Below are positions 1,241-25,190 of a stretch of 45,495 nt of DNA, piece by piece (positions within the stretch are counted from its first letter, which is position 1; every line of letters begins with the position of its first letter). Position numbers and translations under genes: made by a program. This stretch comes from Nemertoderma westbladi (lineage: Eukaryota > Animalia > Xenacoelomorpha): the NCBI GenBank assembly GCA_032718475.1, contig JAUCBJ010002367.1, forward strand, positions 1 through 45,495, written 5' to 3'. The notes under the pieces were generated by a model, which saw nothing but the letters and a program-made list of their open reading frames with translations, was not told the origin of the DNA and ran no database searches.

Positions 1241-1503
1241 ATGGCCGTTATATCGAACCGCCCATGTCCAAGGAACAGCTCACGCGTGAATTGGACTATA
1301 GAAAATTCACCGCTCGCTATACGCATCGTAATGGTACATATATGGACTTCTTAACTACTGGCCATCCTATCGATTTACACGATACGGACGATCTAGACAC
1401 CGAAAGGGAAATGGTTCTCTTTAAATATCATACCCAGCGGAGTCGGAACGATAAACCGAGAATCGAACACGAGAATTCTATTCGAAACCGCCTCGAAAGA
1501 TAG
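1241..1503 (+). pseudogene. Accessory ORF N-terminal fragment of copy A (unknown function)
   Basis: GRYIEPPMSKEQLTRELDYRKFTARY... is homologous to 13902-14354 (B) and 20488-20874 (C). Confidence 0.75.
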
Positions 1504-2325
1504 AATGTGGAGGAAAGTTTAAAAGAGCAAGTAGAGGAGAACCCACTGGAGAAAAATCATACGTTAATGTCCAGGGTCCATAATGTGAACAGTTCCCCGG
1601 GGAGTTTCCCCGGGGCACGGGTGCTCGCGGGCGGTCTCCTTCGGGAGGCTGTAATTTCCTCTTACTTCATCCTCTTCCTGCAATTATTGTGATCAGTGTC
1701 GCAATCAAAGAGCAAGAATGAATGATGACGTAACGGGAAAACATGTCCATCATGGTATCTTATAGATACTACCACATATCCTTCCCCCTCCTTACTACTA
1801 TTCTCCCTCTATACATCGCTATTAAAGATACAACATACTTCGTCCCATCCTCTCTTCCCAACGCGCTCGGAGCTTTTGGGAGACGATCGACCAATCATTG
1901 CCGTATCGTGGTATTGATCGTAACGCCTCTTACTAAACCTCCCACCCTTACTGTTTATTTGGATGCTTATATTGGTGTCCGCACCTCCTGTCCATGTACC
2001 ATTGTGTTGGTATTTATAATATCAACTTCCATCCCTCTTGTTGTTGATTAGATAATCAACCACCAATAATTTCCTTAAGTCCACGACCGTGATACAAGGA
2101 CTGAAAGGACACGTGGATAGTCTGTGAACAACTGGTACCATTATGTGTCATAAATCTGGTTGTTCACCTCCCTTAATGATCGGGGATAAATTCATTTGAA
2201 GATGGTCTTCGAATGTTGCATCCTCCTACTGAGATCGTATTTCTGAATATTTCGGAATGCGACATAGGTCTTCCCCTGTTCTCTACCATCAATGGCGGAA
2301 AACCTATTAGGAATACAACAGGAAC

Positions 2326-2961
2326 ATGGAGAACATTCCATATCCTTTCATAGATACTCAGCTGATTGCTCCCTGGGCAGAAGGCCGAGGTTTCTTCCGA
2401 ACTACGTATGCCAATACACCCAGCGGCATCAACAAAGTACAACGAACCTCCATCGGACATCTTGCCTTTCAAGAATACGGATGGAATTTCAAAGTCGGAA
2501 ACCCTATAAACTATCAACAAGTATATGGAGATCATTATTCTCGATTATACTTCGACGGACCATTGACCGCACCTGGCGTCGTGTATAGCTTCATGAGTGT
2601 TCCACTTCGTCCCTCATTAGCTATATACACTATCTTCGAGAACGCCGCACTTGCCGGTTGGCTAGCCGATGTGTGCAGTCGTACTATACGCGCCCATCCC
2701 TTAATGCTTGGAACTCAACACGCCAAGTTAGATGAACACAATAAATTCATCCGTTTCGAATGCTTCAGGCGCTTTCTGACTCCGTTCCGCAACGTTGATA
2801 GTCAGTTCAAGGACCGCGCTCTGACCAAGCTCAGCCTAAGAGACTCAGCTGCTGAGAAGTTAGACAACGCTGGATTCGCCATTTTCAAGGACGTTTGTAT
2901 ACAGAACTTACATCCCCACGGGTTATTCTATCGTGGAAGTTCAGACACTGGGTTCGCTTGA
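2326..2961 (+). CDS. Accessory ORF segment of copy A, 211 aa, unknown function (absent from B and C)
   Basis: Open, protein-like frame on the element's sense strand inside the accessory region; no motif recognised. Confidence 0.55.
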   Translation: MENIPYPFIDTQLIAPWAEGRGFFRTTYANTPSGINKVQRTSIGHLAFQEYGWNFKVGNPINYQQVYGDHYSRLYFDGPLTAPGVVYSFMSVPLRPSLAIYTIFENAALAGWLADVCSRTIRAHPLMLGTQHAKLDEHNKFIRFECFRRFLTPFRNVDSQFKDRALTKLSLRDSAAEKLDNAGFAIFKDVCIQNLHPHGLFYRGSSDTGFA

Positions 2962-4052
2962 GGAGACAGCTACACCTACCTCAGCTATGCAATCGGAAGA
3001 CGAACCAATATGCTTAGAATCCGAGGAGATTCAACCTACGACATCCCGGAGTAGTGACAACGACTACGTACTGGAATGGTATCAGGGTCTGCAATGTCTC
3101 ACAGCGTACGATTATCGGCATGCCAATTATGTCTCTAGGAAACGTTGCCGATTATGCGCATCTCGAGACCATTTCACCCCTATAGACTCCAATGTACCCT
3201 GCTCCTACTTCCATGAACAGCCTACTATGGAGATCTATTGTGCGTATTGTAGACTCAATAATGTGCACATTTTCTCAGTCTGCCCCCAGTTTATGACTCA
3301 ATGCCATCATTGTCAGTTTAAAGGACATGCAAGTTTTGATTGCCCTTTCAACCGCGATCTAGAAAGCGTAGATGAAATGATTACCCTGCGCTATGTCCGA
3401 GCTTGGGAAGCGAACGCGGATTTACATTGTGAGTCACGTCATCGTTATTACCCTGGACGCGCCTACGAAGGAGTTTATGCGTTCCACCCTTATCTATTCG
3501 CGTCTGTTGAACAAAAATCTCGCATACCGAGTTACGAACTAATGAAGCGTGTTGGCGAGAGTATTTCAACCAAATTTGTTCGTAAATATCACAGGAACAT
3601 TAATCCCAACGATCTCAATTTCTATAACTTGATCAACTTCATTCGTTAAGATCCGGAATATGGCGATTTGTTCATCAACTCGCATCCAGAACTACAGGAA
3701 GTTCATAGACGACCCTATGAATATAGAGCTCGAGAACTCGAGTTGGAAAGAACCATCAAACCGAGGAAATTTCTCACTACTCACGGTCTACCCACCGCTC
3801 TCGTGCAAACGACTCGTCAGGGACCAGTAAGAGCTGCTGTACTGAAACGCGCTTTGAAGGTTGTTCGACCTCGCTCCACTGAGGTTGATATCGATCAACC
3901 GGGTACCTCGACCGGCGGATACACCGACCGTAATCCTAAACCTTCCGATGCAATTGTATAGCCCTCCTAGTAAAGTGGCTCGCACCAAAGAGAAAAGGAC
4001 TCTTGCTAGCCTTAAAAAACTGTGTAAACGCCGTCCGCGTAAGAAAGACTAA
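2933..4052 (+). pseudogene. Accessory ORF with three Cys/His zinc knuckles and a basic C-terminus (in-frame stop at 3647-3649 and further disruptions)
   Basis: CRLCASRDH(X9)C, CAYCRLNNVHIFSVC, CHHCQFKGHASFDC. The downstream part (IKPRKFLTTHG...KKLCKRRPRKKD) is shared with B and C. Confidence 0.7.
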
Positions 4053-4122
4053 CTGTTTAGAGTATTTTTATATTTTAGAAACTGTGATTTTTTATATTTT
4101 ATAGAATTAAATCCCATTTTCT

Positions 4123-4130
4123 GGGAGCGG
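4123..4130 (+). promoter_or_regulatory. Polypurine tract of copy A
   Basis: GGGAGCGG immediately before the LTR-initial TG; the same site occurs at 15515-15522 (B) and as GGGAGTGG at 18773-18780 on the minus strand (C). Confidence 0.75.
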
Positions 4131-4407
4131 TGTAAAAGCTTTTGCGGATATAACCAGTCATTTTTCTCCGCAATGAACTGTTTAGTTGTTTTAGCGGACA
4201 TAACAAGCTATTTTCTCCGCAATGTACCCTGTAAGTGTTTTAGCGGACATAACAAGCCATTTTCTCTGCAATGTACCCTGTAGGTGTTTTAGCGGACATA
4301 ACAAGCCATTTTATGCCACAATACGCCAAATACTCTAAATAGAGTGTAGTTCAGATGACGAAATCTGTCAGCTGATTTGATGTCGATGTGGAGCTTTCTT
4401 ACCTTTC
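4131..4407 (+). repeat. Copy A 3' LTR, first part; contains ~39-40-bp tandem subrepeats with core TTTAGCGGACATAACAAGC
   Basis: Starts TGTAAAAGCTTTTGCGGA and ends at the CTTTC target duplication (4403-4407). Confidence 0.85.
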
Positions 4408-5600
4408 TGTAAAAGCTTTTGCGGATATAGCTAGTCATTTTCCCCGCAAAGTACTCTGTAGGTGTTTTAGCGGACATAAAAAGCCGTTTTCCTACTGTGT
4501 AGGTGTTTTAGTGGACATAAAAAGCCATTTCTTCTGTATGTGTACTTTAGCGGACATAACTAGCGATTTTATGCCGCAATGCACCAAATACTTAATACAG
4601 TGTAGTCCGATGACGACATCTATCAGCTGATATGTCGACGTGTAGCTTTTGGCTTTCTTTGTTCTTTGTTTGGCTCGCTCGACCAATCAGAGCGATTTTC
4701 ACTTTGTGTTGTACCATACCTACAGAAACTCACGCAATTCAGTCAGTGTGTATTTTTCCTAAGCCTAGAACACCGGCTGTGGAATTATTCTGTGTTTCAG
4801 ACTTTAGCCAAACATTAGAACGGCTTTGATTATAGAAACGTATAACTGTTATCAAACTTATCACAAACCATATCAAAGCAGACTCATAGCAAATAAACTC
4901 AATCTTTCACCGCATTATTTTACTGCTATTTATTGTCGGTTATTAATTGTATCAGTTGATGGAACATTGTTATATTTGGAGAATAACGATAAATAACCAG
5001 AAAACCCCAATCTTCTTGATATACTAAAGGTTAGAGAGACTGGTTACATATAGCAATTGCGACTTACATTAAAGTGGTTTTGGAGTGAATCTAATGCTAT
5101 TTCATAGGCCCTACATGTGTCGGTTGCTGTTCTCTTTATATGTGACTAAAATTAGTGAAGGTCGGCAGATCAGTGTGCAGCAGTGTGCGGTATTGTGCAT
5201 GAGTGTGATAGATAACAAAGCATCTCCTAAAGAATGCGCCTTATACGTGAATCAATAGCCATCCCGTTGTGTCTAGTGTAAGTCATAACTCTGTTTATAT
5301 ACTTAGAGCGCCACGTCCTAAAAGGAACTGTTAATATTTCCCGAAAGTGAATAATATTTGTCAGAGATTATATATAAACGATCAATCGAATAGTACAGTA
5401 GGCCTACACCGCAATAAGGTCAGAGCTTCCGAATCCAGTCTCCTGGGTAAATCCAGTGGGTGAATGGTCGCGCATAGGCTGGCTTCGGCTAATGTAGTTT
5501 TATGTGCATCAAATATTTGTCATAGGCTAAAGTCGATTTATAACCTAGAAGACACCTAAATTTGGCAGGTTAAACTGCTAAAGGTCTAAAAGCGCGAACA
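4408..5600 (+). repeat. Copy B 5' LTR (1193 bp)
   Basis: TGTAAAAGC...GCGCGAACA; about 14 substitutions against the 3' LTR by eye (~1%); CCAAT at ~4683. Confidence 0.95.
4842..4852 (+). promoter_or_regulatory. Putative 11-nt self-primer in the LTR (ATAACTGTTAT); homologues at 15957-15967, 16915-16925, 18354-18364 (minus), 34623-34633 (minus)
   Basis: Exact reverse complement of 5601-5611; covaries with the PBS-position sequence between copies B and C. Confidence 0.7.
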
Positions 5601-5611
5601 ATAACAGTTAT
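5601..5611 (+). promoter_or_regulatory. Non-tRNA primer-binding site of copy B (ATAACAGTTAT)
   Basis: Directly abuts the LTR end, lacks the TGG of a tRNA PBS, and is complementary to 4842-4852. Confidence 0.7.
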
Positions 5612-7601
5612 CGGTCTCAGAGAATATAGTTGTCTATTGTTCTGGTAAGAACAATAACAGTTATATCTTCTGATTGCAGTGTAGGCAATAAATATAGTTG
5701 TCTATTGTTCTGGTAAGAACAATAACAGTTATTGCTTCTTTATTGCAAAGTAGGCAATAAAGCAAAGGTACCGGTCGACCGGTAACCAGTAGGCCTGACT
5801 GCCTAACCACCCGAACCGGTACTTACAGCAGTACAGGTACAGCAGTATTATTCGATTTTGATAATTATATACCAGTAGGTCTTGATATTTAATCGGGGAC
5901 GCCTGGTTTTTTATTGGGATTTTACTTAGGCCTATTTCTGTCAGTTTTATTTATTTGAAAGTTAATATTGAACAGAAGGCGTGTAAGCCTGCTCAGATTG
6001 TACAGATAATTTGTAGGCTGGATTGTTGTCTGGCTGTTGTTAAGTCTGAAGAGATTGCAGTGTGTGTAGAGTATATGTCCGATAAAGTACTAGTTAGGAA
6101 CGTAGGGGCTTCCAGTGCTGTAAGGTAAATCCCCTCCCGAAAGAATAAGTCGTACTACTCGGTTAGAACGCATACTAACTAACCATTTCGGAGTCTGCAT
6201 ATACTGTAGTTTATTTAGGCTTGATAGTAGTCTGCCAGCATTTGGTTTTTATTTTGTTTGTGTAGTCTGTACGGGTAGCGTAATATTTATTATTCAGAGT
6301 TTATGCGATTATTCGCAACATTCACAAACCCCAAGTTTATTCCTACAGTAATTGTGCTTATTATACATACCGTTATAGTTAAATTAACCCCGGTACTACA
6401 TCAGGGCTGCTCGGCGTAGGTAAAGACTGGAGATTTTATGCTTTGGTCACTCCGGCAGATACCGTGGTTCTTTTAGCTGTACAAGTATTTTTAACTGCTG
6501 ATTATTTGTTGTATAAGTACTTGTACCTAATTTAGGGTTTAGTGTACAGTGCTTTCCGAAGGTAATTAGTGTGTAGGCAGTATATTTGTGTTGTAAAGTG
6601 GTTAATAGGCACGTTGGCTCTGGTAGGCCGTGGTAATTAACTTCTAGGTAGGAACACTCCGTGTACATAACGTAGTACTTATAGCGCTATGGCTATTTTT
6701 GGGTATTTTTCCTATCTGGACAACGCAATATATTTACTACTGCTTTATTATTTTCAAATACCGTAGTATCCTGTCCGCTTGTAATAACCAGATATTCTAA
6801 CCCTTTGTTAGGCTGGTTTGTAGATTTCTTGTAAAATTAACCCTAAAAATTCGTACGTGTAATTTTTGTGTTTATTTAGAGATTGTAATCTCACCCCGCA
6901 ATTGTATGTAATTTGTAGTAATAAGTTTGTTTTAGTGTCCAATTAGTACCACTTCACTGAGAGCGTACAGCTTCGGTGTAGTGACTCCTTCCCAGAAATA
7001 ATAACATTTATTTCAAATATTGTAACGAAACCCATTAAACGGGTATATATATTATAAATCAACTCAAACCGATTTATAAAATAGTAGGCCTGTCATACAT
7101 CAATTAGGTCTTAATATCAGTTGGACTACTGCTTAAATAACGGTAATAAAGTAAGTAAAGTAACCAAGTAACCCCTAAAATTCAGAAATTCAATTATTCT
7201 AAAATAATTGACATACCGGTATTTACAATAGGCTTATTATATTTATTTCTATAAATTTGAGCTGAAATTATATACCGGTATTCTGTAATTAATTCTAGTC
7301 TATAATTATACTTATATATACTATAAGTGTAAGCTGTATACCGGTATTCACGATAGGCTTATTATATATTTATATATATTTGTGCTGAAATTATATACCG
7401 GTATTCTGTGACAAACCTAGTCTGTAATAATACTTATATATATACTATAAGTGTATACCAGTACTCTAATATATTGTATATATATCGCGTTACATAGAGT
7501 AACGATATCGGTAATTAATTACTAGGCTAACAGTGATACTGAATTACTAGACTTGCTTTAACTGTAATTATAGTAGTAGGCATTCAACTGTACAATCAAA
7601 C

Positions 7602-10600
7602 ATGGCTGACACAAGGCAAACTCTGTCAGATAGTCTCCTAGAAACAACAGTCTGTTTCTCAGATAGGAGTATAGAGAATCCCAGACTGAGGTCTGAGACC
7701 CCTCCTACTGTAAGAAAGGCACCCCTACAGTAGTTGTGTCAGAACCTAGGTTAGTAGAAGCAATTTCGCAATTTGCGAAGTTAGTGAAGCGCCGTAGGTC
7801 TGTCATAGGCACTCAGGCTCAAGTCAAGCGGGACCAAGAAGCAGCTGTTAAACAGCAGCAACACCCTAGCCGAGAACTTATTTCTCAGCGGCCCGATAGC
7901 GCCAGTAGTTCGGATACTGTAGAGCTGACACCCGAGCGCGGAGCAAAGATGGCAGATGCGGTTTATTCAGATCCCCTTCTCATTCTTCCTGCAGCCGTAC
8001 TCACTAGGGTATTGATTGCGGTGGAGGAACACCAAATTGATTGGGCGAGAAGTAAGCGATCGACCAAGGACAGTTATGCGGGATATACAAGGGAGGAACT
8101 GAAGTCTATTGTCGAGTCGCAATGGAACTTCCCTGGACCCGGACTCCCGTTTGACTTATCGGAAGCTGCCTGGGAAGACATACACAGGATGGGAGTGACA
8201 AAGCATACTAGTGATCGAGCTGTATGGAAGAGGTCGGCAGCAGGATACGTACAGGGATTCTTCAGCTCTTTGGAGCGATTAGAGGAACAACTGTTTCAAC
8301 AACCACAAGGACCTCAAGAGCAGGGAGAGCTGCTTTATCAAGTTAGAGAAAGAATTCTAAGAATCAGACTAATCCTATCGGCCTTTGAGGAAGCTTCGAA
8401 AAGAAGACAAGACACGTCGTTGCAAGTTGCCGTAAAGACTTGGTTCCAGCGGGTGGGTCTCAAGGTTCAAGAAACAGCCCAGTGGAAATCTCAGCTGGCT
8501 GAGCGCTTAACCCATGGAGAATCAACAGACGCTACCTTTTCTCAAGTGGAAAGCGAAGCGACAGCAGAGAAACCGCAGAAGAGGGACGCTATTGACATCT
8601 ATCTGTCAGACTATCAAAGATTTATAGGTGCCGAAGAGTTGAGGAGATGGCTGGCTGGACTTCGCCCTAATAGTGAAGGAGCCAAGTTTGTATTGGACGC
8701 ATTAGATACGGAAATGTTAGCTGCGAACCAAGCTAAATTTGATGAAAGACTCCGCATCGCTAGGGTCCAAGAAGAACAAGTAAAGAGAAAACGTATAGAA
8801 GACAGAAAGACAGCAGCAGCGGCAATGGCAGCGGCAGAAGCGGAAAGAAAAGCGGCAGAGGCAGCAGCAGAGGCAAAAGCGGCAGCTGCAGCAGTAGAAG
8901 CAGAAAGAAAAGCGGCAGTGGCAGAAGCAGAAAGAAAGATAGCAGTGGCAGAAGCAGAACGGAGAGCGTCTGAAGAGACCACCCAACTAGAGTTGGAAAA
9001 TCTTCAAGAGAAGCAAGACTACATAAATAAACAGTTAACAGCTAGTCAAATGCAGATGATGAGTCGATCTACTCCCAAAAGACAGGGATTTACATCATCT
9101 GATGAAGGCGATACCACCGATCCTGAAGGCGGAGGAAATAGATCTCGTTCCAACAGACGTAGAAGAATGCCTCACCGTCAGAAATTGCCTGATTTGCCCC
9201 CAGCCGTGAGAAGGCAACTACCTAGCACAGACTTAGGTAGTACAGAACCCACAGACCAAATTATTAGAGTCAAAAGACTCCCTACTATAGTAGATGAGCC
9301 TGAAATAATTAGGCCTGTTCTCGAAGCCACCCCTTCGGTGATAGAGACACCTGTACTCCCTGAACCTACCTCTAAATTCCCTCTGCACAGCACTAAACTA
9401 CCTGTGCCCAACAGAACCACCCCTGAAAATGTTCATGTCCTGGACTCCGAGCGAAGTATTAATGATTTGTCGCCCATTGTCGCGCGTCCGCCCGCTACTA
9501 TGTTGGCGCCTCCCGCTTCGGCGGTCGAGTGGGTAGATGAGGGACGACGGGAGATGGGTCTCCTGCTCGGGCAGCTGAGGGAACACCGTTTGTGCTCCTC
9601 TCAGCAGGTCCGGGAGATGGAAGGGACTGTGCAGCAGTTAAAGGGAACAGTCAGAGAGTGTAGGTTAGAGTGCAGCAGAGTATCGCGTTAGAACGCGACA
9701 AATTTGTAAATATACAAAATGGTATACCACCACCTCCTGTAACAATGTGTCAACCTGTTAGGTCTGAAGTATTTCATGCGCAAGGTGTGGAGCCTACACG
9801 CATCTATACTGCTAGTGAAGTAGAAACTCCTATAGTAAACCCTATTAAGGGTAATTATAAAACCTGTTGACAATGATATTGCATATAGACCTGATCATAA
9901 TCCGAGAAATTTATATACCGATAACTCGATATTAAATAACACGATGGCCCAAGAATGTTTTACGCGTCAAATGGCTAGAACCAAAGCCCGTCAAGCGGTA
10001 AAGGTGGGAGAGATCGTCAAGTTCAATGGAGATGAGATGAAATGGTTACCTTTTAATGAATATTATAAAGATAACATACAGAACTCTATGCTATCTAACG
10101 GAGAGAAACTTAGATTCCTCATCGAGTGTTTGGAAGGACCTCCCAAGTTAATGGCGTTAAAGTTTATTGGACATCCAGATGGATTAAGACAAGTTTGGGA
10201 TACACTAAACATCAGGTATGGTAATAGGACTAACATAGCTAGGTATTTATATGCGAAATTAATGGCGCCCCGAAAGTTTCTTAGCAGCGGGATTATAGAG
10301 TTTTCCGACGAGATTCAGGAGATCTGTAGACAACTAGATTGGTTAGGTAAGTCTCATGAATACCAGAATTCTATGGTTGTAGGAGCCTTAGCATCTACTT
10401 TGCCCAAGGGTGGAGTAGGTACACACTGGGACAAGAAAGTGTTATATATGATGGAACAACAACGAAGAGACCCTACCATGGCTGATCTCATGTCATTCTT
10501 AGATGGAGAGGTAAAATTACAGCTCCTAAAGCAGTCCAGAGAGAAGACACCGGAAAATAAGGTAAGTGAGAAACCCGTTTCTAGGAGAAAGGTAATACCA

Positions 10601-12195
10601 GTGTGTTATACAGACGACGGCGAAAGCCAGGCTTCTCAAGAGGAAGACAGTGGGAAAGACACTGAAAGATCTTACTATGACAACAAAGCGCCTAAGGACG
10701 TAAGTAAATTCAAGTCTCGAACCAATGACAGGATAGAACAGGTAAGAAAAACTCCTCCTACGTCTCCTAAGATAATTCATGGAAGAAAGCCCGAGGAAAG
10801 AACGAGTGTGCACAACGTTACCCAAGGTAAAGTAAGTAACATCAAACCAAAATGTGTGCTGTGCGACGGGCCCCACCGTTTAAGTGTGTGTGAAGAATTT
10901 CTCAAGAAATCACTAAAGGATAGACGTGAAGTCATGTGGGATAAGCGGTTGTGTTATAATTGCCTCAGACAAGGACACCAACGGCGAACCTGTTACTCCG
11001 ACGTAAGGTGTGCAAAATGCGGCGCTAAACATTTGCTGGACAACCCAAGTTCCGAACTAAGTTAAACATGTCAGGAATTATGCAGGTTTGGAAATCTACA
11101 GTAATCGCAGATTACTATGTAGGTGCGTTGTCCACCCCCCAGGATGAACTAGGAGAACACCGTATAAGGTCAGTAAAAATGGTGGCGATAAAGAACTTCG
11201 CTACCAGCCAAGTGGAACCTTATAACTGGGATGAGGACGATTTCACCCAGCAGCATAAGATACCTAGATTCAACACAGACTACCCTGGAGTGCAAATACT
11301 CATCGGCCAAAATGCGCATGAGGCGCTTGAGACATTAGAGAAACGGCCTGCTCGACCGCAACCATTGCGAACCTATGCGGGAAGAACAAGAGTAGGTTGG
11401 TACCTCACAGGACCTTCCCGTAGGACACTCCTAGAAAGACTACCCAAAGATCAGGTCCATCAGGAGAGTGAATGGGAAGAAGACATCAGTGAGGGAGAGA
11501 CGACCACAACTGAGGGAACACCATACTCCTCAGATAATGACGATATTAACTCTAATGTAGATCAATGGAGACATTGCCCCGAGACGATTAATCTAGCCGA
11601 CATCGCTTCCAGAGGAGCAACTCCTCAAGAACTGACAGATACTCCAGACTGGTTAGGTGGACCCGACTTCCTAAGTAAAGAAGATGAATAGCCTCCCCAT
11701 CTTACCACGGCTGAGATTAGACAAGCCAAGGGAGCGGAGAAAGTCAAACCTAAAACCCGGACGAGTAAATCAAGGTTATTTAAACCCGTGATAGATCTGT
11801 CTGTACTGCACATTGCCAGGGACGACGCTGTGGATCTAAACTCCCCCACCGCGAACAGATCTGTTGTGGAGATCAGAGAGAGAGACTGGAGATCTGGAAC
11901 ACCAGACGTCTCGCAGGAACTCTCACCTCTCCTGCCGGGAGCGATGGACCACTATAGATCCTGGAATCGGCTTTGTAAGGCCGCCGTGTGTTTGAAGCGA
12001 TGTTTCTATCGTCACTATTCCATGACGAAGAGGAAACCGGGAATTGTCTTCGAGACGCAGCAACTCAACCGCCCAGTCGGTCGTTTATGTTTACTGGAAA
12101 GAGACTGAGAACTCTCCGGAAACTATGGAAGGCAAGATACTCTTCCCACGACCACCTCCCTAATCCAACAAATATCTAGGGACTCCCCAACGTAA
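7602..12195 (+). pseudogene. gag-pol: Copy B gag-pol remnant: Gag (coiled coil, DUF1759-like domain, BEL zinc knuckles) with the protease active site, RT, most of RNase H and the integrase core deleted
   Basis: ORFs 7736-9691 and 9944-11065 (FNGDEMKWLPF..LSNGEKLRFLIECLEG; CVLCDGPHRLSVC; CYNCLRQGHQRRTC; CAKCGAKH), then 11068-11691 and 11788-12108. Deletion junctions at ~11032, ~11550 and ~12030 relative to copy C. Confidence 0.9.
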
Positions 12196-12724
12196 CAGCG
12201 TCTGGAGTGGGTGTGTGACTATATTATTTTATATTTGTTTTTATTATTTTATATTTATGTATGTATTATTATGTAATTTTATTATAATCGTTTTCTTTAA
12301 TTTTATTTAGTAGAATGTTATTTTTGCGATTATTTAGTAGATTAGTGCAATATATATTAGTGTTTATTACTTACTTAATTATATTATATTATATATTTAG
12401 TGCAACGGCGAGAAATAATTCTTTTTCTCTTTCCTTACTGTCCGTATTACATTACAAATGCGTGACTACAGTAAGATGAAATATCCGTACTTATTAAAGT
12501 ACAATAAAGCTCCTACTATATTCAAGTATTATTGGTAAGTAGAGTATTAGGAATGCAAAATTCAGATCCACGTGTCTCGGCTAAACCAAGCTCTGGGTAG
12601 ACCTTGGAAACGACTTGCCTCTTCTCACTGACATTGCTTCTTGCAATATTGCTCTCATACCGTATATTAAATAATACATATAGTAGCGTGATTTCCCTTT
12701 AACAGTAGCGTAAAACGCAAAATA

Positions 12725-13085
12725 AATCTGTTAAACCCTTTGACCATCTGTAATTCTAGTCGATTAAGATATCGCGGCACCCACCGATATACTTGAAAGA
12801 CAAAATTCTAGAATCAGTGGTTAACGTCCCCAGACAAGTTCTGGAATAAACCGGTGCCCATCTTAAATATTAACTATTAATATTTGTAAAATCTGTCAAA
12901 CAAATACAATAGAGTAAATACTTACAAGTTAACTCTAGAAAATCTATAAATTAAAATCTGTTAAATTTTAGATCCTTTAAAATTCTAGTCGATTAAGATA
13001 TCGTAGCACTTACCGATACTCTTAAAAAGACAAATTTCCTAGAATCAAGGATCCCAGTCCCCAGACATGCTCTGTAATAAAATTG
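12725..13085 (+). repeat. Diverged ~130-bp direct repeat pair in the post-pol non-coding region (also in C at ~21700-22080)
   Basis: AAATCTGTTAAA...AATTCTAGTCGATTAAGATATCG...GACAAA..CTAGAATCA...GTCCCCAGACA...AATAAA at ~12725 and ~12953. Confidence 0.8.
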
Positions 13086-13901
13086 CGTCTATTCCATATT
13101 AAATAATAAAATTTACGGGAATAAATTTAAATTCATATCCTATCATGAATTTGATAAATTGTTATTTTATACAATTTATAATATTCCCAAAATTCCATTA
13201 ATTAATAGATCATGGGATCGGAGATTCACCCTATTAAGTGTATTAGTGTGCGAGAATCTCCAATATATAGTCAATAGCCGATAAAATTCATAAAATCATG
13301 TATAAAGAGGAATATTGACAATTAAAGAATTACTATTAAATAGCATCCCAGATCTGTATGCATGAGAATTACCCTAATTCTACTGCTAGCTTTCCATAAT
13401 GTCACCATGGCAACAACCATGCTAGAATTAGAAGTGAGTTAAAAGAACAATAAAGGCTTGCCCCATTGAATAGCATAGGGAATAAATAGCATACTGCTAG
13501 TATCCAAGGATACATAATAATAACGTGGCATTCTGGAAGGCACTTTACTAACGGACAAATAGCCCGAATGTGTGCGATTTGTGACAGTTGTGTGGAATTT
13601 GTGCGTTTATAGGTGAATGTTACTACTAAAGTGTGTTTACAGTAGTGAGTCGCAATTGTGAAAGTAGCCCTAACTCTCCAGTGAGAACCTGAAGTAAATC
13701 TAAGCCTTTGGGACGGACAGTTGAGTGACTCGCGCTGGTTATTGTTGTCGTTGTGTAGCTACTACGTTGGCGAAAAACACAGCGACGACGGTACATAGGC
13801 GCTGAGGATCTTGCACTGTCCAGTGGCCGAGAGGGGTAGGCAGCGACGCCCGCTAGCCTAATTATAACCAATTATAATATTGATAAACTCATATAGCAGA
13901 T

Positions 13902-15444
13902 ATGACTGAGTTGATAGAAGATGATCTTGGTATCAGGGAGCGATATACTCTACCGTTGCAAGCATTTGTTGATAGCTTAATATGCGGCGACACTGGTCCA
14001 ACTACTACTGAGGACTATGGTAGTTATATCGAACCGCCAATGTCCCAGGAGCAACTCACTCGTGAGTTGGACTATCGAAAATTCACTGCTCGCTATACGC
14101 ATTGCAATGGTACGCATATGGACTTCTTAACTACTGGTCATCCTATCGATTTACACGATACGGACAATGTCGACACCGAAAGGGAAATGGCCCTATTTAA
14201 ATATCCTACCCAGCGGAGTCGGAACGATAAACTGAAAATCGAATGCGAAAATTCTATTCGAAATCGACTCGAAAGAAAAGACGTTAAAGAACGCGGTAAC
14301 TCCAACATATATTGGGAATTCTTGAGAAAAAAAAAACATTGTAAAACCGAATAAATATCACCCGCTTTTCCCCTACAAGACGTGCGTCTTTGGTATTATT
14401 GCGATGAATGCCCAAGACCCAACCAACAAACGGAAAGACATAAACATCCGCGGAGACGTTGCTTTAAACACGGTTTTACTCGCTATATTTACGGGAGTTT
14501 CGAGCGAAACTTGTTCGATGTGCCACCTACGCTCGCTCGACTCAAACGATCATAAACCCATGATCAGAGTTCCGGAATGCTCGGTCAGACCTCCTCATTC
14601 CCTAGTTAGACCTCAGACTCTTGATCCTAATAGTATCACAGATCCTCCCGAACTGTACTCACTGTTCAAAGATCTAGTGTTACCCGAACAGTTAGTCGGT
14701 GGCACTCCGGTTGTGGGCTCCCTAAATATTCGCCCATCTTACCTAGTCGGATTGACGCGCGGACATCTAATATCGCCATTCAATCGTATCATCGTCCCGG
14801 TTTAACCCGATACAACCTGTCACCGAGGATGAGGAGAGAGTTGTACGAAACGCGTTGGACGCTATTCGTCAAAGATCGGAAAAGGAACCTACAATTGTTT
14901 AGAGAAATGTAAATTGTAGCAGCAAGTCCAAGCAGTAAACGAATTAGCTTTATCTCAGTTCGATCCGGAAATCCAGAATCTCTAAGAAGATATCGAACTT
15001 TGGCGACCCTACTCTCTAAAAGAGTTTTAGACGAATGCTTCCAACAACAAGCGGAGGAAAATCAGCTCGAGGAGAAGCATATCGATTCCGATAGAGCCCG
15101 AGAACGCGAGTTGAAAAGAATCATCAAACCGAGCAAATTTCTCACTACACACGGTCTACCTACCGCTCTTGTGCAAACGACCCGTCAGGGACCAGTAGGA
15201 GCTGCTGTCCTAAAACGTGCTCTAAAAGCCGTTAGACCTCGCTCCACTGAGGTTGATATCGATCAACCAGGTACCTCGACCGGTGGATACACCGACCGTA
15301 ATCCTAAACCTTCCGATGCTATTGTATTGCACCCTTCACCCAGGAGTTATAGCCCTCCTAGTAAAGTGGCTCGCCCCAAAGAGAAAAGGACTCTTGCTAT
15401 CCTCCAAAAAACTGCGTAAACGCCGTCTGCGCAAGAAAGACTAA
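13902..15444 (+). pseudogene. Copy B accessory ORF remnant (frameshifted, large internal deletion at ~15085)
   Basis: MTELIEDDLG... through ...KRRLRKKD; homologous to the A and C segments. Confidence 0.75.
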
Positions 15445-15522
15445 CTGTTTAGAGTATTTTTTATATTTAGAAACTGTGATTTTTTATATTTTATAGAATT
15501 AAATCCCATTTTCTGGGAGCGG

Positions 15523-16715
15523 TGTAAAAGCTTTTGCGGATATAGCTAGTCATTTTCCCGGCAAAGTACTCTGTATGTGTTTTAGCGGACATAAAAAGCC
15601 GTTTTCCTACTGTGTAGGTGTTTTAGTGGACATAAAAAGCCATTTCTTCTGTATGTGTAATTTAGCGGACATAACTAGCGATTTTATGCCGCAATGCACC
15701 AAATACTTAATACAGTGTAGTCCGATGACGACATCTATCAGCTGATATGTCGACGTGTAGCTTTTGGCTTTCTTTGTTCTTTGTTTGGCTCGCTCGACCA
15801 ATCAGAGCGATTTTCACTTTGTGTTGTACCATACCTACTGAAACTCACGCAATTCAGTCAGTGTGTATTTTTCCTAAGCCTAGAACACCGGCTGTGGAAT
15901 TATTCTGTGTTTCAGACTTTAGCCAAACATTAGAACGGCTTTGATTATAGAAACGTATAACTGTTATCAAACTTATCACAAACCATATCAAAGCAGACTC
16001 ATAGCAAATAAACTCAATCTTTCACCGCATTATTTTACTGCTATTTACTGTCGGTTATTAATTGTATCAGTTGATGGAACATTGTTATATATGGAGAATA
16101 ACGATAAATAACCAGAAAACCCCAATCTTCTTGATATACTAAAGGTTAGAGAGACCGGTTACATATAGCAATTGCGACTTACATTAAAGTGGTTTTAGAG
16201 TGAATCTAATGCTATTTCATAGGCCCTACATGTGTCGGTTGCTGTTCTCTTTATATGTGACTAAAATTAGTGAAGGTCGGCAGATCAGTGTGCAGCAGTG
16301 TGCGGTATTGTGCATGAGTGTGATAGATAACAAAGCATCTCCTAAAGAATGCGCCTTATACGTGAATCAATAGCCATCCCGTTGTGTCTAGTGTTAGTCA
16401 TAACTCTGTTTATATACTTAGAGCGCCACGTCCTAAAAGGAACTGTTAATATTTCCCGAAAGTAAATAATATTTGTCAGAGATTATATATCAACGATCAA
16501 TCGAATAGTACAGTAGGCCTATACCGCAATAAGGTCAGAGCTTCCGAATCCAGTCTCCCGGGTAAATCCAGTGGGTGAATGGTCGCGCATAGGCTGGCTT
16601 CGGCTAATGTAGTTTTATGTGCATCAAATATTTGTCATAGGCTAAAGTCGATTTATAACTTAGAAGACACCTAAATTTGGCAGGTTAAACTGCTAAAGGT
16701 CTAAAAGCGCGAACA
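15523..16715 (+). repeat. Copy B 3' LTR (1193 bp)
   Basis: Follows the PPT; near-identical to 4408-5600; followed by the CTTTC TSD. Confidence 0.95.
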
Positions 16716-17669
16716 CTTTCTTTGTTCGGCTCGCTCGACCAATCAGGACGATTTTCATTTTATTTTGCACAGAGGCCTACTGAAAGTCGCGCAATGCATG
16801 ACGGTCTTTGTTTACCTTTCTGAGCAAGAACAACTGCTTGGAAATTATTCTGTACTTCTGTGTTGGAAGTTTCAGACTTTGGCCAACATTAGACGGCTTT
16901 GATTATAAAAACGTAAATCTATTATCTGACCACTGGCATGGTCTGACAAATCAAACCAAACTCTGCACTCACGCAATCCTATTCACCGCATTATTTTACT
17001 GCTATTTACTGTCGGTTATTAATTGTTACCTGTTGATGGATATGTTGTTATATTTGGAGAATATCGAGAAATAATCATAAAACCCCAAATCTTCTTGATT
17101 ACCAAAGGTTAGAGAGACCAGTTACCGGTAGCAATTGCGACTTACATTACAGTGGTTTTAGTGTGCATTAAATGCTATTTCATAATCCCTACATGTGTCA
17201 GTTGCTATCCTCCTTATATATGATTAAATTCAGTGACGGTCGGCAGATCAGTGTGCAGCAGTGCGAAGTTGTATGCAGCAGTGTGACAGATAATAAAGCA
17301 TCTCCTAAAGAATGCGCCATTTACGAAAATCAATAGCCATCTCGTTGTGTTTAGTATAAGTCATAACTCTGTTTATACTTAAAGCACCACGTCCTAAAGG
17401 AACTGTTAATATTTCCCCGAAAGTGAATAATATTGTCAGAGATTATATAGTAACATCAATCGAATAATACCGTAGGTCTGCACCGCAATCCCTTCAAAGC
17501 ATCCGAATCCAGTCTCCCTTAACCGTGGGTGAATGATGGCGCATAGACTGGCTTCGGCTAATGTTACTTCATGTGCACTAAATACTTGTTATAGGCTAAA
17601 GTCGATTTATAAACAAGAGGACACCTAAAATTGGCAGGTTAAACTGCTAAAGGTCTGAAAGCTCGAACA
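16716..17669 (+). repeat. Copy A 3' LTR, second part
   Basis: Continues the LTR sequence from the point interrupted at 4407; a diverged variant of the B LTR; ends GCTCGAACA. Confidence 0.88.
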
Positions 17670-18772
17670 CAATTATTTAATGTACTGAAGTTACATCCGC
17701 CGAAGCCAGTCTGTGCGCGATCATTCACCCACATTTAAGGGAGACTGGATTCGGGTGCTTTGAAGTTATTGCGGTGCAGACCTACTGTTTCGACTGTATT
17801 CGATTGATCGTTACTATATAATCTCTGACAAATATATTTACTTTCGAGGAAATATTAACAGTTCCTTTAGGACGTGGCGCTTTAAGTATAAAAACAGAGT
17901 TATGACTTAAACTAATCACAACTAGATGGCTACAGAGTTTCGTAAATAGCGCATTCTTTAGGAGATGCTTTATTATCTGTCACACTACTTCACACGACTT
18001 CACACTACTTCACACTGATCTGCCAACCGTCACTGAATTTGATCATATATAAGGAAGATCGCAACTGACACTTGTAGGGATTATGAAATAGCATTTAATT
18101 CACACAAAAACCATTATAATTTAAGTCGCAGTTGCTACCGGTAACCTGTTCCTCTCACCTTCAGTAATCAAGAAGATTGGGGGTTTTATGATTATTCATC
18201 GGTATTCTCCAAATATATCAGCAATATACATCAACAGATAACAACAATTAATAACAGAAGTAAAAATAATGCGGTGAACAATCAGCATGTGTTACATAAG
18301 TCAGTATGTACGCAGTTAATGTTTCCAGGCAGGTGATCGGTAGGGCCAGTCAGATAATAGATTTACGTTCTTGTAATCAAAGCCATCAGATGTTTAGGCC
18401 AAAGTCTGAAACTTCCGAAACAGAAGCACAGAAGAATTCTAAGCCGGTTCTCTGGCTCAGAAAGGTAAAACAAAGACTGTAATGCATTGCGCGGTTTTCC
18501 GTAGGCCCTTGTTCAACATAAAGTAAAATCGATCTGATTGGCTGAGCAGAACAAAGAGGTTCCACGTCTACAGGAAATCAGCTGACAGATTTCGTCATCT
18601 GAGCTCCAATCTTTTAGAATATTATGCGCATTGTGGCAAAAATGTCTTGTTATGTCCGCTAAAGCACCTATACTGTGCATTGTGGGGAAAAATGACTTGT
18701 TATGTCTGCTAAAGCACCTATACTGTGCATTGCGGGGAAAACTGACTTGTTATGTCCGCAAAAGCTTTTACA
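17670..18772 (-). repeat. Copy C 3' LTR (cut at the copy A junction)
   Basis: Direct repeat of 33944-35042; preceded on the minus strand by the PPT GGGAGTGG. Confidence 0.92.
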
Positions 18773-18850: not shown

Positions 18851-20874
18851 TTAGTCCTTCTTATGTGAACGGCGTTTATGAAGTTTTTCGAGGCTAGCAA
18901 GAGTCCATTTCTCTTTGGGGCGAGCCACTTTACTAGGAGGGCTATAACTCCTGGGTGAGGGTTGCAATACAATTGCATCGGAAGGTTTAGGGTTACGGTC
19001 GGTGTATCCGCCGGTCGAGGTACCCGGTTGATCGATATCAACCTCAGTGGAACGAGGTCGAACAACCTTTAGAGCGCGTTTCAAGACAGCAGCTCTTACT
19101 GGTCCCTGACGGGTCGTTTCCGTCGTGGACCGTGAGTAGTGAGAAATTTCCTCGGTTTGATGGTTCTTTCCAACTCGTGTTCTCTGGCATTATATTCATA
19201 TGGTTGTCTATGAATTTCTTGTAACTCTGGATGCGAGTTTATGAACAAGTCACCGCGTGATTTATCAATGGTAGAAACTTTAAACTGTATGTGAGATCTT
19301 CCGGTTTCACCATATAATATTGAGTTAAATTGACATAATAAGGGCAGTCTTTGATCCCATAAAATGAGTTCGGTAGAGGTCTAGCGCGTAGGTTGACCTC
19401 ATGTACCATACGACGGACAAGATCCGCTCGAATGTCCGGAGGTTCAACGAGTATACCGTCGACACGAGTGGCCTCGATTGGCGGACGTTGTAACATAGGA
19501 GCGTCAGCGATAAGATCTCTAGATCTTAGGTTGATATCAACCGGTTGGGGTTGTACCGTGGCGAAGAGTTTGTCTCCGAAATGGGGAACCATCGAGGGAT
19601 GAATGATGGTTTTGGGATAGAAATAAGGATTTGAGCTTCTGGCTGGGCTAAAGCTGCTTCTTCTCTCTCGTCCATTTCGATATGCTTCTCCTCGAGCTGA
19701 TTTTCCTCCGCTTGTTGTTGGAAGCATTCGTCCAAAAACTCTTGCAGAGAGTAGATTCGTCCACGTTTGATGTCTTCCTCGAGATTCTGGATTTCCCGAT
19801 CAAACTGGGGTAAAGCTAATTCTTTTACCGCTTGGACTTGCCGCTGCAATTTACGTTTATCTAAACAATCGTAAGTTCCTTTTCCAATCTTTTGTCGAAT
19901 AGCGTCTAGCGCGTTTCGTACAATGCTCTCCTCCACCTCGGTGACGGGTTGTATCAGGGTTAGACCGGGACGATTATACGGGTTGAACGGCGATATTAGG
20001 TGTCCGAGTCCCAATCCGGCTAGGTAAGATGGGCGAATATCTAGGGAGCCCACAACCGGAGTGCCACCGATTAATTGTTCGGGTAACACTAGATCTTTGA
20101 ACAGTGAGTACAGTTCGGGAGGATCCGTGATACTATTAGGATCAAGAGTCTGAGGTCTCACCAGGGAATGAGGAGGTCTGACCGAGTATACCGGAACTCT
20201 GATCATAGGTTTATTTAAGAATCGTTTGAGTCGAGCGAGCGTAGGTGATACGTCGAACAAGTTTCGCTCGAAACTCCCGTAAGTATAGCGAGTAAAACTG
20301 TGTTTAGCGCAACGTCTCCGCGGATGTTTATGTCTTTCTGCCTGCTGGTTGGGTCTAGGGCATTCATCGCAATAATACCAAAGACGCACGTCTTGTAGGG
20401 GAAACGCGGGTGATCTTTCTCCAGTTTTACAATGTTTCTCTCAAGAATTCCAAATATACGTTGAAGTCACTGCGTTTATCCGGTTCTTCAACGTCTTCTC
20501 TTTCGAGTCGATTTCGAATAGAATTTTTCGTGTTCGATTCTCAGTTTTTCGCTCCGACTCCGCTGGGTATGATAATTAAATAGGATCATTTCCCTTTCGG
20601 TGTCTACATCGTCCGTATCGTGTAAATCGATAGGATGACCAGTAGTTAAGAAGTCCATATACGTACCCTTACGATGCGTATAGCGAGCAGTGAATTTTCT
20701 ATAGTCCAATTCACGCGTGAGCTGTTCATTTGACATTGGCGGTTTGATATAACGGCCATCGTCCTCCGTAGTAGGTTGACTAGCGTCGCCGCTTATTAAA
20801 CTATCAACAAACGCTTGCAAGGGTAGGGTATATCGCTCCCCGACACCAAGATCATCTTCTATCAACTCAGTCAT
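18851..20874 (-). pseudogene. Copy C accessory ORF remnant(s), with an internal deletion at ~19260
   Basis: ORFs 20488-20874, 19526-20389 (YYCDECPRP...HKHPRRRC; coiled-coil-like QQQAEENQLEE), 19239-19727 and 18851-19084. Confidence 0.75.
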
Positions 20875-22602
20875 AGCTGCTATATGAGTTTATCGATATT
20901 ATAATTAATCATAATTTAGGCTAGCGGTCGTCGCTGCCTCCCCCTCAATGCCCCCGGACAGCGCAAGCTCCTCAGCGCTGATGTACTGTCGCCGCTGTGT
21001 CTCTCGCCAAACGTAGTAGCTACACAATGACAACTATAACCAGCGCGAGTCACTCCACTGTCCGTCCCAAGGGCTCAGAATTACTTCAGGTTATTGCTAC
21101 AGAGGCAGGGTAACTTTCACAACTGCGACTCGCTACTGTAAACACACTTTAGTAGTAACATTCACCTATAAAGACACAAATTCCACGCACTTGTCACAAA
21201 TTGTACACATTCGGGCCATTTGTCCGTTAGTCAAGTGCCTTCGTGCCAATGCCACGTTATTATTATGTATCCCTGGATACTAGCAGTGTGCTATTTATTC
21301 CGTATGCCACTCAATGGGGCAAGCTTTCTATTGTTTCTTTAACTCGCTTCTAATTCTAGCGTGGTTGTTGCTATGGTGACATTATGGAAAGCTAGCAGTA
21401 GAATTAGGGTAATTCGCATGCATACAGATCTGGGATGCTATTTAATAGTAATTCTTTAATTGTCAATATTCCCCTTTATACATGATTTTATGAATTTTAT
21501 CGGCTATTGACTATATATTGGAGATTCTCGCACACTAATATACTTAATAGGGTGAATCTCCGCTCCCATGATCCATTAATTAATGGAATTTTGGGAATGT
21601 TATAAATTGTATAAAATGACAATTTATCAAATTCATGAGAGGATATGAATTTAAAATTTATTCCCGTAAATTTTATTATTTGATATTAAAATGGACACAA
21701 TTTTATTCCAGAACTGGTCTGGGGACTAGGATCCTTAATTCTAAGAAATTTGTCCTTTTAAAAGTATCGGTAAGTGCTACGATATCTTAATCGACTAGAA
21801 TTTTAAAGGATCTGTATTTTAACAGATTTTGGATTTCTAGATTTTCTTAGTTTACAAACTCCTTAGAGTTTATTTGTATGCATTTACTCTATTATAACAT
21901 TTGTTTTAATAGATTTTTATAAATATTAAATATTTAAGATGGGCACCGATTTATTCCAGAACTTGTCTGGGGACGTTAACCACTGATTCTAGAATTTTGT
22001 CTTTCAAGTATATCGGTGGGTGCCGCAAAATCTTAATCGACTAGAATTACAGATGGTCAAAGGGTTTAACAGATTTATTTTGCGTTTTACGCTACTGTTA
22101 AAGGGACATCACGCTACTATATGTATTATTTAATATACGGTATGAGAGCAATATTGCAAGGAGCAATGTCAGTGAGAAAGGCAAGTCGTTTCCAAGGTTT
22201 ACCCAGAGCTTGGTTTAGCCGAGACACGAGGATCTGAACTTTGCATTCCTAATACTCTACTTACCAATAATACTTGAGTATAGTAGGAGCTTTATTGTAC
22301 TTTAATAAGTACGGACATTTCATCTTACTGTAGTCACGTATTTATAATATGATACGGACAGTAAGGAAAGAGAAAAATAATTATTTCTCGCCGTTGCACT
22401 AAATATATAATGTTAAGTAATTAAGTAATAAACACGAGTATATATATTGCACTAATCTACTAAATAATCGTTAAAATAACATTCTACTAAATAAAATTAA
22501 AGAAAATGATTATAATAAAATTACATAATAATACATACATAAATATAAAAATAATAAAAACAAATATAAAATAATATAGTCACACACCCACTCCAGAAGC
22601 TG

Positions 22603-24092
22603 TTACATTGGGGAGTCCCTAGATGTTTGTTGGATTAGGGAGGTGGTCTTGGGAAGAGTATCTTGCCTTCCATAGTTTCCGGATAGTTCTCTGTCTCTTT
22701 CCAGTAAACATAAACGACCAACTGGGCGATTGAGTTGCTGTGTTTCGAATACAATTCCAGGTTTCTTAAAGATACGTCGCATGACGACGAATTCTACCGA
22801 TCGCACTAAACCATCATCGGATATATGAGTCTCGATGATACGACCTGTCTGCCACCGCTTACGTGGAAGATCTGATTCCACAATAAGTACCATGTCTCCG
22901 GCGCTGACGTTTTCTTGCTGTGCAAACCACTTGGTTCGAAGTTGTAGCGTAGGCAGATAATGTTTTTCGAAATGGTCAGCGAAACGATGGGATAATAACT
23001 GCATGAGTTGCCAAGTTTGTCGGCAGTATTCGTCTCCGTCCGTGATTTCCGATTGTGGGAGCATGGCTACAGGTTTCTTCAGTAGGAAATGCGCGGGTGT
23101 TAGCGCTTCTAGGGAGTCGGAACTCGATGAGACTGGCATAAGCGGTCTCTCGTTAAGATAGGCGGCGATTTCTTCCATTAACGTCCGCAAAAGTTCGTTG
23201 GTGAGATACGCGCGGCAAGGCACTATAAAGTGAAATGCGGTCTTCACGCTCCTTATTAATCTCTCCCAACTTCCTCCCCACCAAGGGGCGTCGGCGGCGT
23301 TGAAGGTCCAGCTAGATGCGGTTACCCTTAGCTGATCGTCCACCTGTCTTTGGTTCCAATCTTTAACGTAAGCCTTGATCTCATTATTGGCGCCAATGAA
23401 GTTCGTTCCCTTATCAGATCTCATCGTGTTGCTAGTTCCAAAGCGAGCGATCTGTCGGCGTAAAGTCAGTATGAAGCTGTTGGTAGATAGATCGTTCACC
23501 ATATCTAGATGGATCGCTCTACAAGTCATACAGACAAAGATGACACACCATCGCTTGACTATAGTCCTAGCACGATATACTTCAATAGGGCCAAATAAAT
23601 CCACACCAGTATTAGTAAAGGGTGGTTCATAGAAGCTTACTCGTTCCCTAGGTAATTCTGCCTCTCGCTGTGTTAAAGGCCTACTGAATGCTTTCCTACA
23701 GGGTATACAGTTCCTAAGAACTTGGTTCAGAGCTCTACGGGTTTATGGAAATAATAGCGAGTTCGAATTTCGCTCAGAATTCGTTCTCTACCAGCATGGT
23801 AAAGCCTACTGTGAACATCTACAATCATCTTGATTTGTATTTCAAGATTTCTAATGAGTATGGGAAATTTAGTGTCAAAGGACAATGGAGCATTAGTTAG
23901 TCTCCCTCCAACACGTATTAACCCATCTATCATTGTGCTAGAGAAACGATCCTTTAAGCGCATCTGTGGATTTCTCAACAACAGGAAATACTTATCAGAA
24001 TCTTCATAGCATTGCAGGAGTCTCAGTATCTGCTTATTGGTTTCTTCATGCTCTTGGTAACTGATCTTCACCGTCAGAAAACTATCCGACAT
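22603..24092 (-). pseudogene. pol: BEL/Pao integrase (HHCC, DDE core, DUF5641-like C-terminus), frameshifted
   Basis: GLIRVGGRL; H..LYHAG; DLFGP; RAIHLD; SDKGTNF; APWWGGSWERLIRS; LNERPL; LTPAHFL; GDMVLI; DGLVRSV; RPVGRLCLL. Confidence 0.95.
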
Positions 24093-24467
24093 TTAGTAGG
24101 TGGGAAGATCTTTAATAGCATGGACCTGCTCGGATGTCAGTGGAGCGGTATCACTAGCGATCTTCGTCCTGGAGTAGTGATGATGGAAGCATCGCTTCAA
24201 ATACACGATGGCCTTACAAAGCCGATTCCAGGAGCTATAGTGATTTATCGCTCTCTGCAGGAGAGGTGAGAGTCCCTGCGAGACGTCTGGTGTTTCAGAT
24301 TTCCAGTCTCTTTCTCTGATGTCTATAACAGATTTATTTGTGGGGGGGGAGTTTAGATCCACAGCGTCGTCCTTGGAGATGTGTAGTACAGACAGATCTA
24401 TCACGGGTTTAAATAACTTTGATTTACTCGTTCGGGTTTTAGGTTTGACTTTCTCCGCTCCCTTGGC

Positions 24468-25190
24468 TTATCTAATCTCAGCCGTGGTGAGATGAGGAGG
24501 CCATTCATCTTCTTCTTTACTAAGAAAGTCGGGTCCACCTAACCAGTCTGGAGTATCTATCAGTTCTTGAGGAGTTGCTCCTCTGGAGGCGATGACGGCT
24601 GGATTAATCGTCCCAGGGCAATGTCTCCAATGATCTACAGTAGAGCGACTAAGTATAATGGCTACTCTGTTGGTAACGAAGACACTGAACTGACAGACTT
24701 CATTTGTTATATACTCCAAAACGAGTAAAGCAACGGTCCAATAGACAGTTTTCTCCAATGGATAGTCAATCTGTTCTGTTACATTCCGGCCGATGGCTGT
24801 AGCGTATAGAGCCGCCTTTAACTCCGCTCGAGGAACTCGTAGTTTGTTGTTTATCAAGGCCTTAGAGGTAACCAAGGCAACTTTGATTCCATCCAGAGTT
24901 TCAACCCTCAGGTAGGCTACTATACCTATTCCCATATCGCTGGCGTCTCCAAACACATGGAGTTGATAAGAATACGTGGGGAGAACGTGACCAAAATATG
25001 AACGGGAAATCGTAAAGTTCTCGATGGATGGTAGAGAATCTTCCCATTTCATCCACTTCTTTAGTAGTTCTCCCTTAAGTGGATCGTCCCACGAGTGGTT
25101 TTCAAGCCTCATTTGTTGCACTAAGCTCCAAGCAACCAATATAACTGGGCTAATAAATCCCAATGGATCGAAATAAGTGCTCAGGATACT
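24468..25190 (-). pseudogene. pol: BEL/Pao RNase H region (Peptidase_A17/Pao domain)
   Basis: FDPLGFISP; WDDPL; LHVFGDAS; PRAELKAA; FVTNRV; WRHCPGTINPA.IASRG. Confidence 0.93.

Follow-up and report, generated by a model that had tools for sequence, protein, structure and literature searches.

What primes minus-strand DNA synthesis in BEL/Pao retrotransposons that have no TGG-type tRNA-binding site after the 5′ LTR? The question is raised by a stretch of 45,495 nt from Nemertoderma westbladi (assembly GCA_032718475.1, contig JAUCBJ010002367.1, positions 1 to 45,495, forward strand), referred to here as the window. A first-pass annotation had proposed an answer modelled on the S. pombe element Tf1, namely priming by the first 11 nt of the element's own RNA. 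Part of this proposal stands: the sequences of the window copies and of 18 other BEL/Pao families point to tRNA-independent priming by an LTR 11-mer. Because two copies in the window match their own LTRs and matches in relatives lie well above cross-locus controls, we consider it likely (probability of about 0.8) that the window copies are self-primed. The "first 11 nt" geometry, by contrast, is doubtful.

Comparison of the window with itself revealed three nested copies (A, B and C) of one LTR family (Table 1). Copy B (4408-16715, plus strand) has 1193-nt LTRs with 14 mismatches (98.8% identity), and copy C (35042-17670, minus strand) has LTRs that differ at 4.3% of sites. The end of the A LTR coincides exactly with the point at which the C 3′ LTR is cut, so that copy A probably sits inside this LTR in the opposite orientation; all three nesting junctions (within 4131-35042) fall within LTRs of one and the same family. 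Copy B is the youngest and is devoid of two segments found in C, of about 1.8 kb (at position 11550) and 1.4 kb (at 12031-12033), which comprise most of the RT/RNase H and integrase; it is therefore a non-autonomous derivative.

The three copies belong to BEL/Pao (Belpaoviridae). They present Pao-type pol domains, a DUF1759 gag and the order protease, RT, RNase H, integrase (PF03564, PF05380 and PF18701 matches in C and B, corresponding to DUF1759, Peptidase_A17 and DUF5641), together with direct TG...CA LTRs, a purine tract and a target-site duplication. The integrase of copy C has 122 relatives at E 0.001 or better, 31-46% identical, the named ones coming from fish, a crinoid, insects, a nematode and an acoel. 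The 18-nt site complementary to a host tRNA that figures in the ICTV description of the group, which is not a phylogenetic criterion, was not found: as already noted in the first-pass annotation, TGG follows neither the B nor the C 5′ LTR. No tRNA gene was detected in the window.

Several other features of the window were recorded. Long ORFs without Pfam match lie 5′ of the DUF1759 region (with an alanine/glutamate-rich repeat), and extra ORFs lie between integrase and 3′ LTR (7697-9691, 30995-31924 and 18851-20889), making the element far longer than typical BEL/Pao elements. Copy C carries a 1.15-kb insertion on the opposite strand (~28072-29221) with RVT_1 and DUF6451 matches, a LINE-like fragment. 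A stretch of copy A (1500-3660) with ORFs and a weak zinc-knuckle match has no counterpart in B or C and is probably another inserted element, and a satellite array (79-nt unit, 42 copies, 95% alike) occupies positions 39505-42850.

Table 1. Features of the nested BEL/Pao copies in the window.
Feature	Position	Strand	Basis or remark
Predicted self-primer, B 5′ LTR (LTR position 435)	4842-4852	+	Exact reverse complement of 5601-5611
Predicted primer-binding site of B, flush with LTR, no TGG	5601-5611	+	Sequence match
Predicted self-primer, C 5′ LTR, one G-U against binding site	34623-34633	-	Sequence match
Predicted primer-binding site of C, flush with LTR, no TGG	33851-33861	-	Sequence match
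B-specific 68-nt tandem repeat with two extra 11-mer copies (5654-5664, 5722-5732), each in a predicted local hairpin	5623-5732	+	Sequence, fold
9-bp stem just 3′ of last binding-site copy; C has same stem, other loop	5738-5762	+	Sequence; fold of C copy
CCAAT box common to A, B and C, 159-178 nt 5′ of primer	4683-4687	+	
Likely poly(A) signal position, AATAAA (A, C) or AACAAA (B), 372-391 nt 3′ of primer	5214-5219	+	Function inferred
Copy B 5′ LTR, TGT...ACA, 1193 nt	4408-5600	+	98.8% identity to 15523-16715
Copy B 3′ LTR, primer copy at 15957-15967	15523-16715	+	Self-comparison
Short purine tract preceding B 3′ LTR	15515-15522	+	Sequence
B target-site duplication, 5 nt	4403-4407; second copy 16716-16720	+	B inserted within A 3′ LTR
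Copy A 3′ LTR, left part	4131-4407	+	Self-comparison
Copy A 3′ LTR, right part; includes a primer site of the C type, 16915-16925	16716-17669	+	Self-comparison, match test
Copy C 5′ LTR	33862-35042	-	95.7% identity to 17670-18772
Copy C 3′ LTR, primer copy 18354-18364; cut about 78 nt short of end where A LTR ends	17670-18772	-	
B gag-region ORF, DUF1759	9839-11065	+	PF03564 E 1.5e-13
C, end of gag plus pol, distributed over several separate frames (zinc knuckles, protease, RT, RNase H region with PF05380, integrase and DUF5641)	22603-27958	-	PF05380 E 5.4e-34, PF18701 E 6.3e-21, translations

The 11 nt abutting the B 5′ LTR are, as first reported, the exact reverse complement of a site within that LTR, and they pair equally with the corresponding site of the 3′ LTR. 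In copy C, the abutting 11 nt match the C 3′ LTR exactly and the C 5′ LTR with one G-U pair, again as reported, and they also match the copy A site exactly. The context AACGT-[11 nt]-C is present in all five LTRs and, in an anchored test, the pairing ends at exactly 11 nt. The claim that the three positions (of 11) differing between B and C are all matched at the partner site holds against the C 3′ LTR and copy A, whereas only two of the three are fully compensatory against the C 5′ LTR. When the tests were crossed (B site against C and A LTRs, C site against the B LTR), 5-7 nt at most could be paired. A first-order Markov model predicts 0.0012 (B) and 0.0016 (C) chance matches per LTR; among internal 11-mers, a partner of this kind exists for 6 of 9912 and 6 of 15079. 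Three changes in 11 nt are in keeping with the LTR divergence of 17.5%; given three changes on each side, the probability that they agree by chance in place and base is 2.2e-4. These figures concern the only two binding sites within the window, and the two matches are not independent, the copies being homologous to each other.

The two LTRs of B stop at the same base, ahead of the target duplication, from which we infer that minus-strand synthesis of B started where the match begins. In the window copies, about 750 nt separate the predicted primer from the LTR end, versus 108-216 nt in five relatives. Contigs from four sequencing runs covering the B LTR correspond to a very abundant and diverse family (summed depth of 1e5-1e6 over much of the LTR); none of the 40 variants listed, out of 205 variant rows, falls in the primer or the binding site, and no piece spans both sites.

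To place the match among relatives, an integrase alignment of 53 sequences was used to assemble 95 loci, corresponding to one viral locus, 14 genome contigs and the best 80 of 530 metagenome loci confirmed in a scan of 13 of 64 parts. The 14 contigs (L002-L015) are filed under bacterial genomes and most likely represent animal DNA in these assemblies. Pattern searches for the LTR end in viral and genome contigs gave no match, nor did a single-protein viral scan. Both LTR ends could be set by direct repeats in eight loci: the post-LTR sequence matches the own LTR over 11-15 nt, 0-3 nt from its end, in five of them and in a sixth once its LTR end had been re-called, and the other two have TGG sites. 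In controls, 90 crossed pairs reached 9 nt at most, and 11 nt was attained in 3 of 3000 internal stretches taken at random.

A blind scan was then restricted to the 48 loci that have a gag start preceded by at least 80 nt. Self-matches of at least 11 nt were obtained in 18 of these 48 loci versus 16 of 384 cross-locus controls, four of the latter falling within one family (p 1.7e-10). Thirteen of the 18 span a junction with a GTAAG or GTGAG donor, two are contiguous and three (L004, the contiguous match of L006, and L056) were judged to be chance; for GTRAG-donor junctions alone, the ratio is 13/48 own versus 1/380 unrelated pairs. Curation of the 48 loci, which includes non-blind additions made by eye or in another pass and then checked by position, led to 14 families with a spliced junction (and two duplicates of them), four contiguous families, one ambiguous locus, four loci with TGG and 23 unclassified loci, mostly with incomplete LTRs. 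The ambiguous locus (L037) has a distal match that requires a spacer of 6 nt and coincides in part with a local 12-nt palindrome. In L048, the match grew from 7 to 11 nt when the first-placed LTR end was corrected; in this locus and in L017, the LTR copies cease to match at ...TA instead of ...CA, and a spacer of 2-3 nt precedes the self-matching site. One contiguous candidate (L027) was rejected as a chance match in a 5′-truncated copy of the L026 family.

In the 14 spliced families, the site matches the LTR only across a spliceosomal intron junction (10-15 nt in the spliced form versus 6-9 nt for the best unspliced match), the introns measuring 71-1022 nt. In all cases, the helix starts 0-4 nt past the LTR end; its sequence varies by family, always tracking the own LTR. 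What the window shows directly is a complementary site flush with the LTR end and the matched changes, and 18 other families have the same layout. Within it, the window family would correspond to the contiguous, intron-less state, and most readable relatives would need to splice an intron out of the LTR to form the primer.

We built a tree of 39 RT-RNase H-integrase sequences by a quick LG+G4 analysis, without bootstrap or root, so that no direction of change can be read from it; L027, duplicates, several unclassified loci and named BEL/Pao references are not part of it. The four TGG loci fall on one side of a branch (support 99) that also includes two unclassified sequences, and spliced and contiguous forms are intermixed, forcing at least five changes. 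The sisters L015 (spliced) and L050 (contiguous) have homologous 11-mers with two differences, both matched in the binding site, and L034 and L053 form a second sister pair, in which similar primers contain an intron in one family but not in the other. These two pairs suggest repeated intron loss or gain at the primer. Copy C sits on a long branch; the open node that it joins also leads to L044, the TGG group and two spliced families, so that its tie to the self-matching relatives is tentative.

Where does the primer lie in the RNA? In seven relatives, a TATA box is present no more than 260 nt upstream of the primer, which begins 221, 165, 133, 133, 122, 49 and 31 nt beyond it. Transcription usually starts 30 nt from the TATA box; with this spacing, the primer of five of the seven would lie 90-190 nt inside the transcript. 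Moreover, a start at the primer in the 14 intron families would leave a first exon of 3-9 nt. The Tf1-like position at the very start of the RNA is thus doubtful, since the primer is more than 120 nt (122-221) downstream of TATA in five of seven relatives and such first exons would be so short. In the window copies, the CCAAT box upstream and the likely poly(A) signal downstream would put the 11-mer within R, provided that the RNA starts close to the CCAAT box. We lean towards a primer inside R for these copies, and hold a primer that begins at the first transcribed base, as in Tf1, to be the somewhat less probable arrangement. The T|A at the first base of the primer fits an initiator, which counts against an internal primer. 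The TATA-like run at 16904-16910 (-11 of the primer), described in the first-pass annotation as not kept in C, is indeed perfect only in A, and it belongs to copy A. Another TATA-like run, located 527-545 nt 3′ of the primer, is conserved and counts against our preferred explanation. Priming near the poly(A) site was also considered and does not fit, the conserved signal being 372-391 nt downstream of the primer.

RNA folding does not support the primer helix. Predicted folds of B and C do not contain it (mean pair probability of 0.09 or less), and it appears in the fold of one (L017) of three correctly placed relatives. Forcing it would cost 0.9-1.9 kcal/mol if the RNA begins at the primer and 4.4-7.0 kcal/mol with 100 nt upstream, a difference that, in these models, would tilt slightly towards the Tf1 geometry. 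A U5 hairpin is predicted in B (5561-5582) and at the LTR end of C; the latter can also pair with the leader, placing the binding site in a predicted 9-nt loop. A donor-like AAG|GT(T/A/G)AGA is present in A, B and C about 190-205 nt past the primer and 5′ of the likely poly(A) signal (5027-5035 and homologous sites); it may belong to an intron or act as a U1 site, either of which would make the leader shorter.

Copy B carries the primer-binding 11-mer three times, starting at 5601, 5654 and 5722, a feature absent from the first-pass annotation. The repetition (5596-5732) includes the last letters of the LTR and is missing from C. Each 68-nt unit has an inverted near-copy that can cover the adjacent site by folding (-12 to -17 kcal/mol), and the tandem repeat could be a fold-back product of plus-strand synthesis.

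The explanation that we favour in full, and which we find fairly probable as a whole, is that the copies draw their primer from the LTR portion of their own RNA, with RNase H predicted to cut at the 3′ end of that segment. The transcript would begin in the 5′ LTR, at or upstream of the 11-mer, which would anneal to the binding site located some 750 nt further on; cleavage between the last U of the 11-mer and the following C would free a 3′-OH, to be extended straight into the LTR end as minus-strand DNA, and the resulting strong-stop DNA would jump to the 3′ repeat. A known ribozyme was rejected as the cutting agent, as an Rfam search of positions 4100-7700, directed at self-cleaving RNA motifs in the LTR, gave no match at E up to 1. 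The primer may then be copied into plus-strand DNA, as reported for Tf1, carrying its changes to the binding site, which would explain the covariation between the two. If the 3′ repeat is usually unspliced, the intron would be inherited; a spliced 3′ repeat would yield an intron-less family such as that of the window. Copy B would have been copied in trans, because it is devoid of most of the RT, RNase H and integrase.

Other readings of the same match have to be weighed against self-priming. That it arose by chance in AT-rich sequence, helped by the near-palindromic B 11-mer, is hardly credible. The B 11-mer does agree with its reverse complement at 10 of 11 positions, as had been pointed out, and loose scans of long flanks produced chance matches (rejected in L004, L005 and L027); but the C 11-mer is not palindromic (4 of 11), the match has the same homologous position in B and C with an expectation of only 0.001-0.002 per LTR, and the enrichment among relatives already largely refutes this reading. 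It is improbable, too, that the pairing is a conserved RNA structure serving packaging, dimerisation or translation, with priming by a host RNA that has escaped recognition, for instance an internal fragment of a tRNA. Half-tRNA primers do occur in Ty1/copia lineages, according to the available part of one source (PMC6317226), but a host RNA would need to change in step with a site that begins 0-4 nt past the LTR end in all cases and whose family-specific letters follow the own LTR, and the helix itself would block this site.

The same 11-mer could also prime in trans or from the RNA 3′ end, being supplied by another RNA packaged alongside, by the copy in the 3′ LTR or by a small RNA derived from the LTR. 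We hold this to be unlikely, even though sequence alone cannot tell it from priming in cis. The C site is perfect against the C 3′ LTR and the A LTR but forms a G-U with its own 5′ LTR, the distance in cis is long, the helix is absent from the predicted fold and the family is very abundant. However, with 4.3% of sites differing between the C LTRs, one post-insertion change explains the G-U pair. In addition, 14 families form the primer only after splicing and yet keep the intron in DNA, which fits a spliced 5′ copy combined with an unspliced 3′ copy.

The closest parallel to the proposed self-priming is Tf1, whose primer consists of the first 11 bases, freed by an RNase H cut between bases 11 and 12 (PMC7175516), and about half of whose cDNA retains a copy of the binding site made from the primer (PMC11042837). 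According to the portions of the literature available to us, self-priming has been described for Tf1 and Tf2 of S. pombe and Tj1 of S. japonicus and predicted for Tcn1 and TAR elements (PMC4600332, PMC5341516, PMC6317226). The window copies resemble the Tf1/sushi elements, as far as the accessible text describes them, by the absence of a tRNA site, the 11-nt complementarity between a site next to the LTR end and the own LTR, and the predicted RNase H cut (PMC7175516, PMC4600332, PMC5341516, PMC11042837). The B site, unlike the C site, starts with the same five letters as the Tf1 site given in the available text, probably by coincidence (PMC11042837). The window copies are nevertheless not members of Tf1/sushi, since they have BEL/Pao domains and not a Ty3/gypsy chromovirus pol. 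They also differ from Tf1 in the ~750-nt distance from primer to site; in most TATA-bearing relatives the primer would lie well inside the transcript, and an intron in the primer is not mentioned for Tf1 in the accessible parts of these sources (PMC7175516, PMC4600332, PMC5341516, PMC11042837).

As for BEL/Pao itself, the ICTV profile describes an 18-nt site that is complementary to tRNA-Arg or tRNA-Gly, with genome lengths of 4.2-10 kb, and it lists host-tRNA priming while calling replication poorly understood and priming assumed from other families (PMC8742986). The window elements share with Belpaoviridae (Semotivirus) the DUF1759 gag, zinc knuckles, protease-RT-RNase H-integrase order, PF05380, DUF5641, TG...CA LTRs and 5-nt target duplication, but they have no such tRNA site, measure 12-17 kb, and carry long leaders and extra ORFs (PMC8742986). 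We found no precedent for self-priming in BEL/Pao, including in the accessible parts of PMC3118150, PMC6238403, PMC554778, PMC3601003, PMC6934838 and PMC8220671; a brief one may exist in subscription papers on BEL-like elements, Repbase reports or supplements. In plants, self-priming has been predicted from LTR complementarity for Tcn1 chromoviruses and for the TAR/Houba/Osr-1 elements of Ty1/copia, and thus arises in more than one superfamily; the available part of the source mentions neither a BEL/Pao case nor a primer built by splicing (PMC6317226).

If our reading is correct, BEL/Pao would become the third LTR superfamily with self-priming, and annotation tools that require a tRNA site would miss or misread such elements. 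A broader proposal, on which we are evenly divided, is that a large part of BEL/Pao is tRNA-independent and uses an internal primer from its own RNA, made in most families by spliceosomal removal of an LTR intron so that splicing gates replication; intron-less families would arise repeatedly by copying back a spliced repeat, and tRNA priming would be confined to one branch. An internal primer, often across a splice junction, is a geometry not described for Tf1, and it would place element replication under the control of the host splicing machinery. As the sequence specifies the exact cut and junction, self-priming can be tested with RNA end-mapping data. The comparison with Tf1 suggests that the element most likely works like Tf1 in using its own RNA and probably differs from it in the position of the primer.
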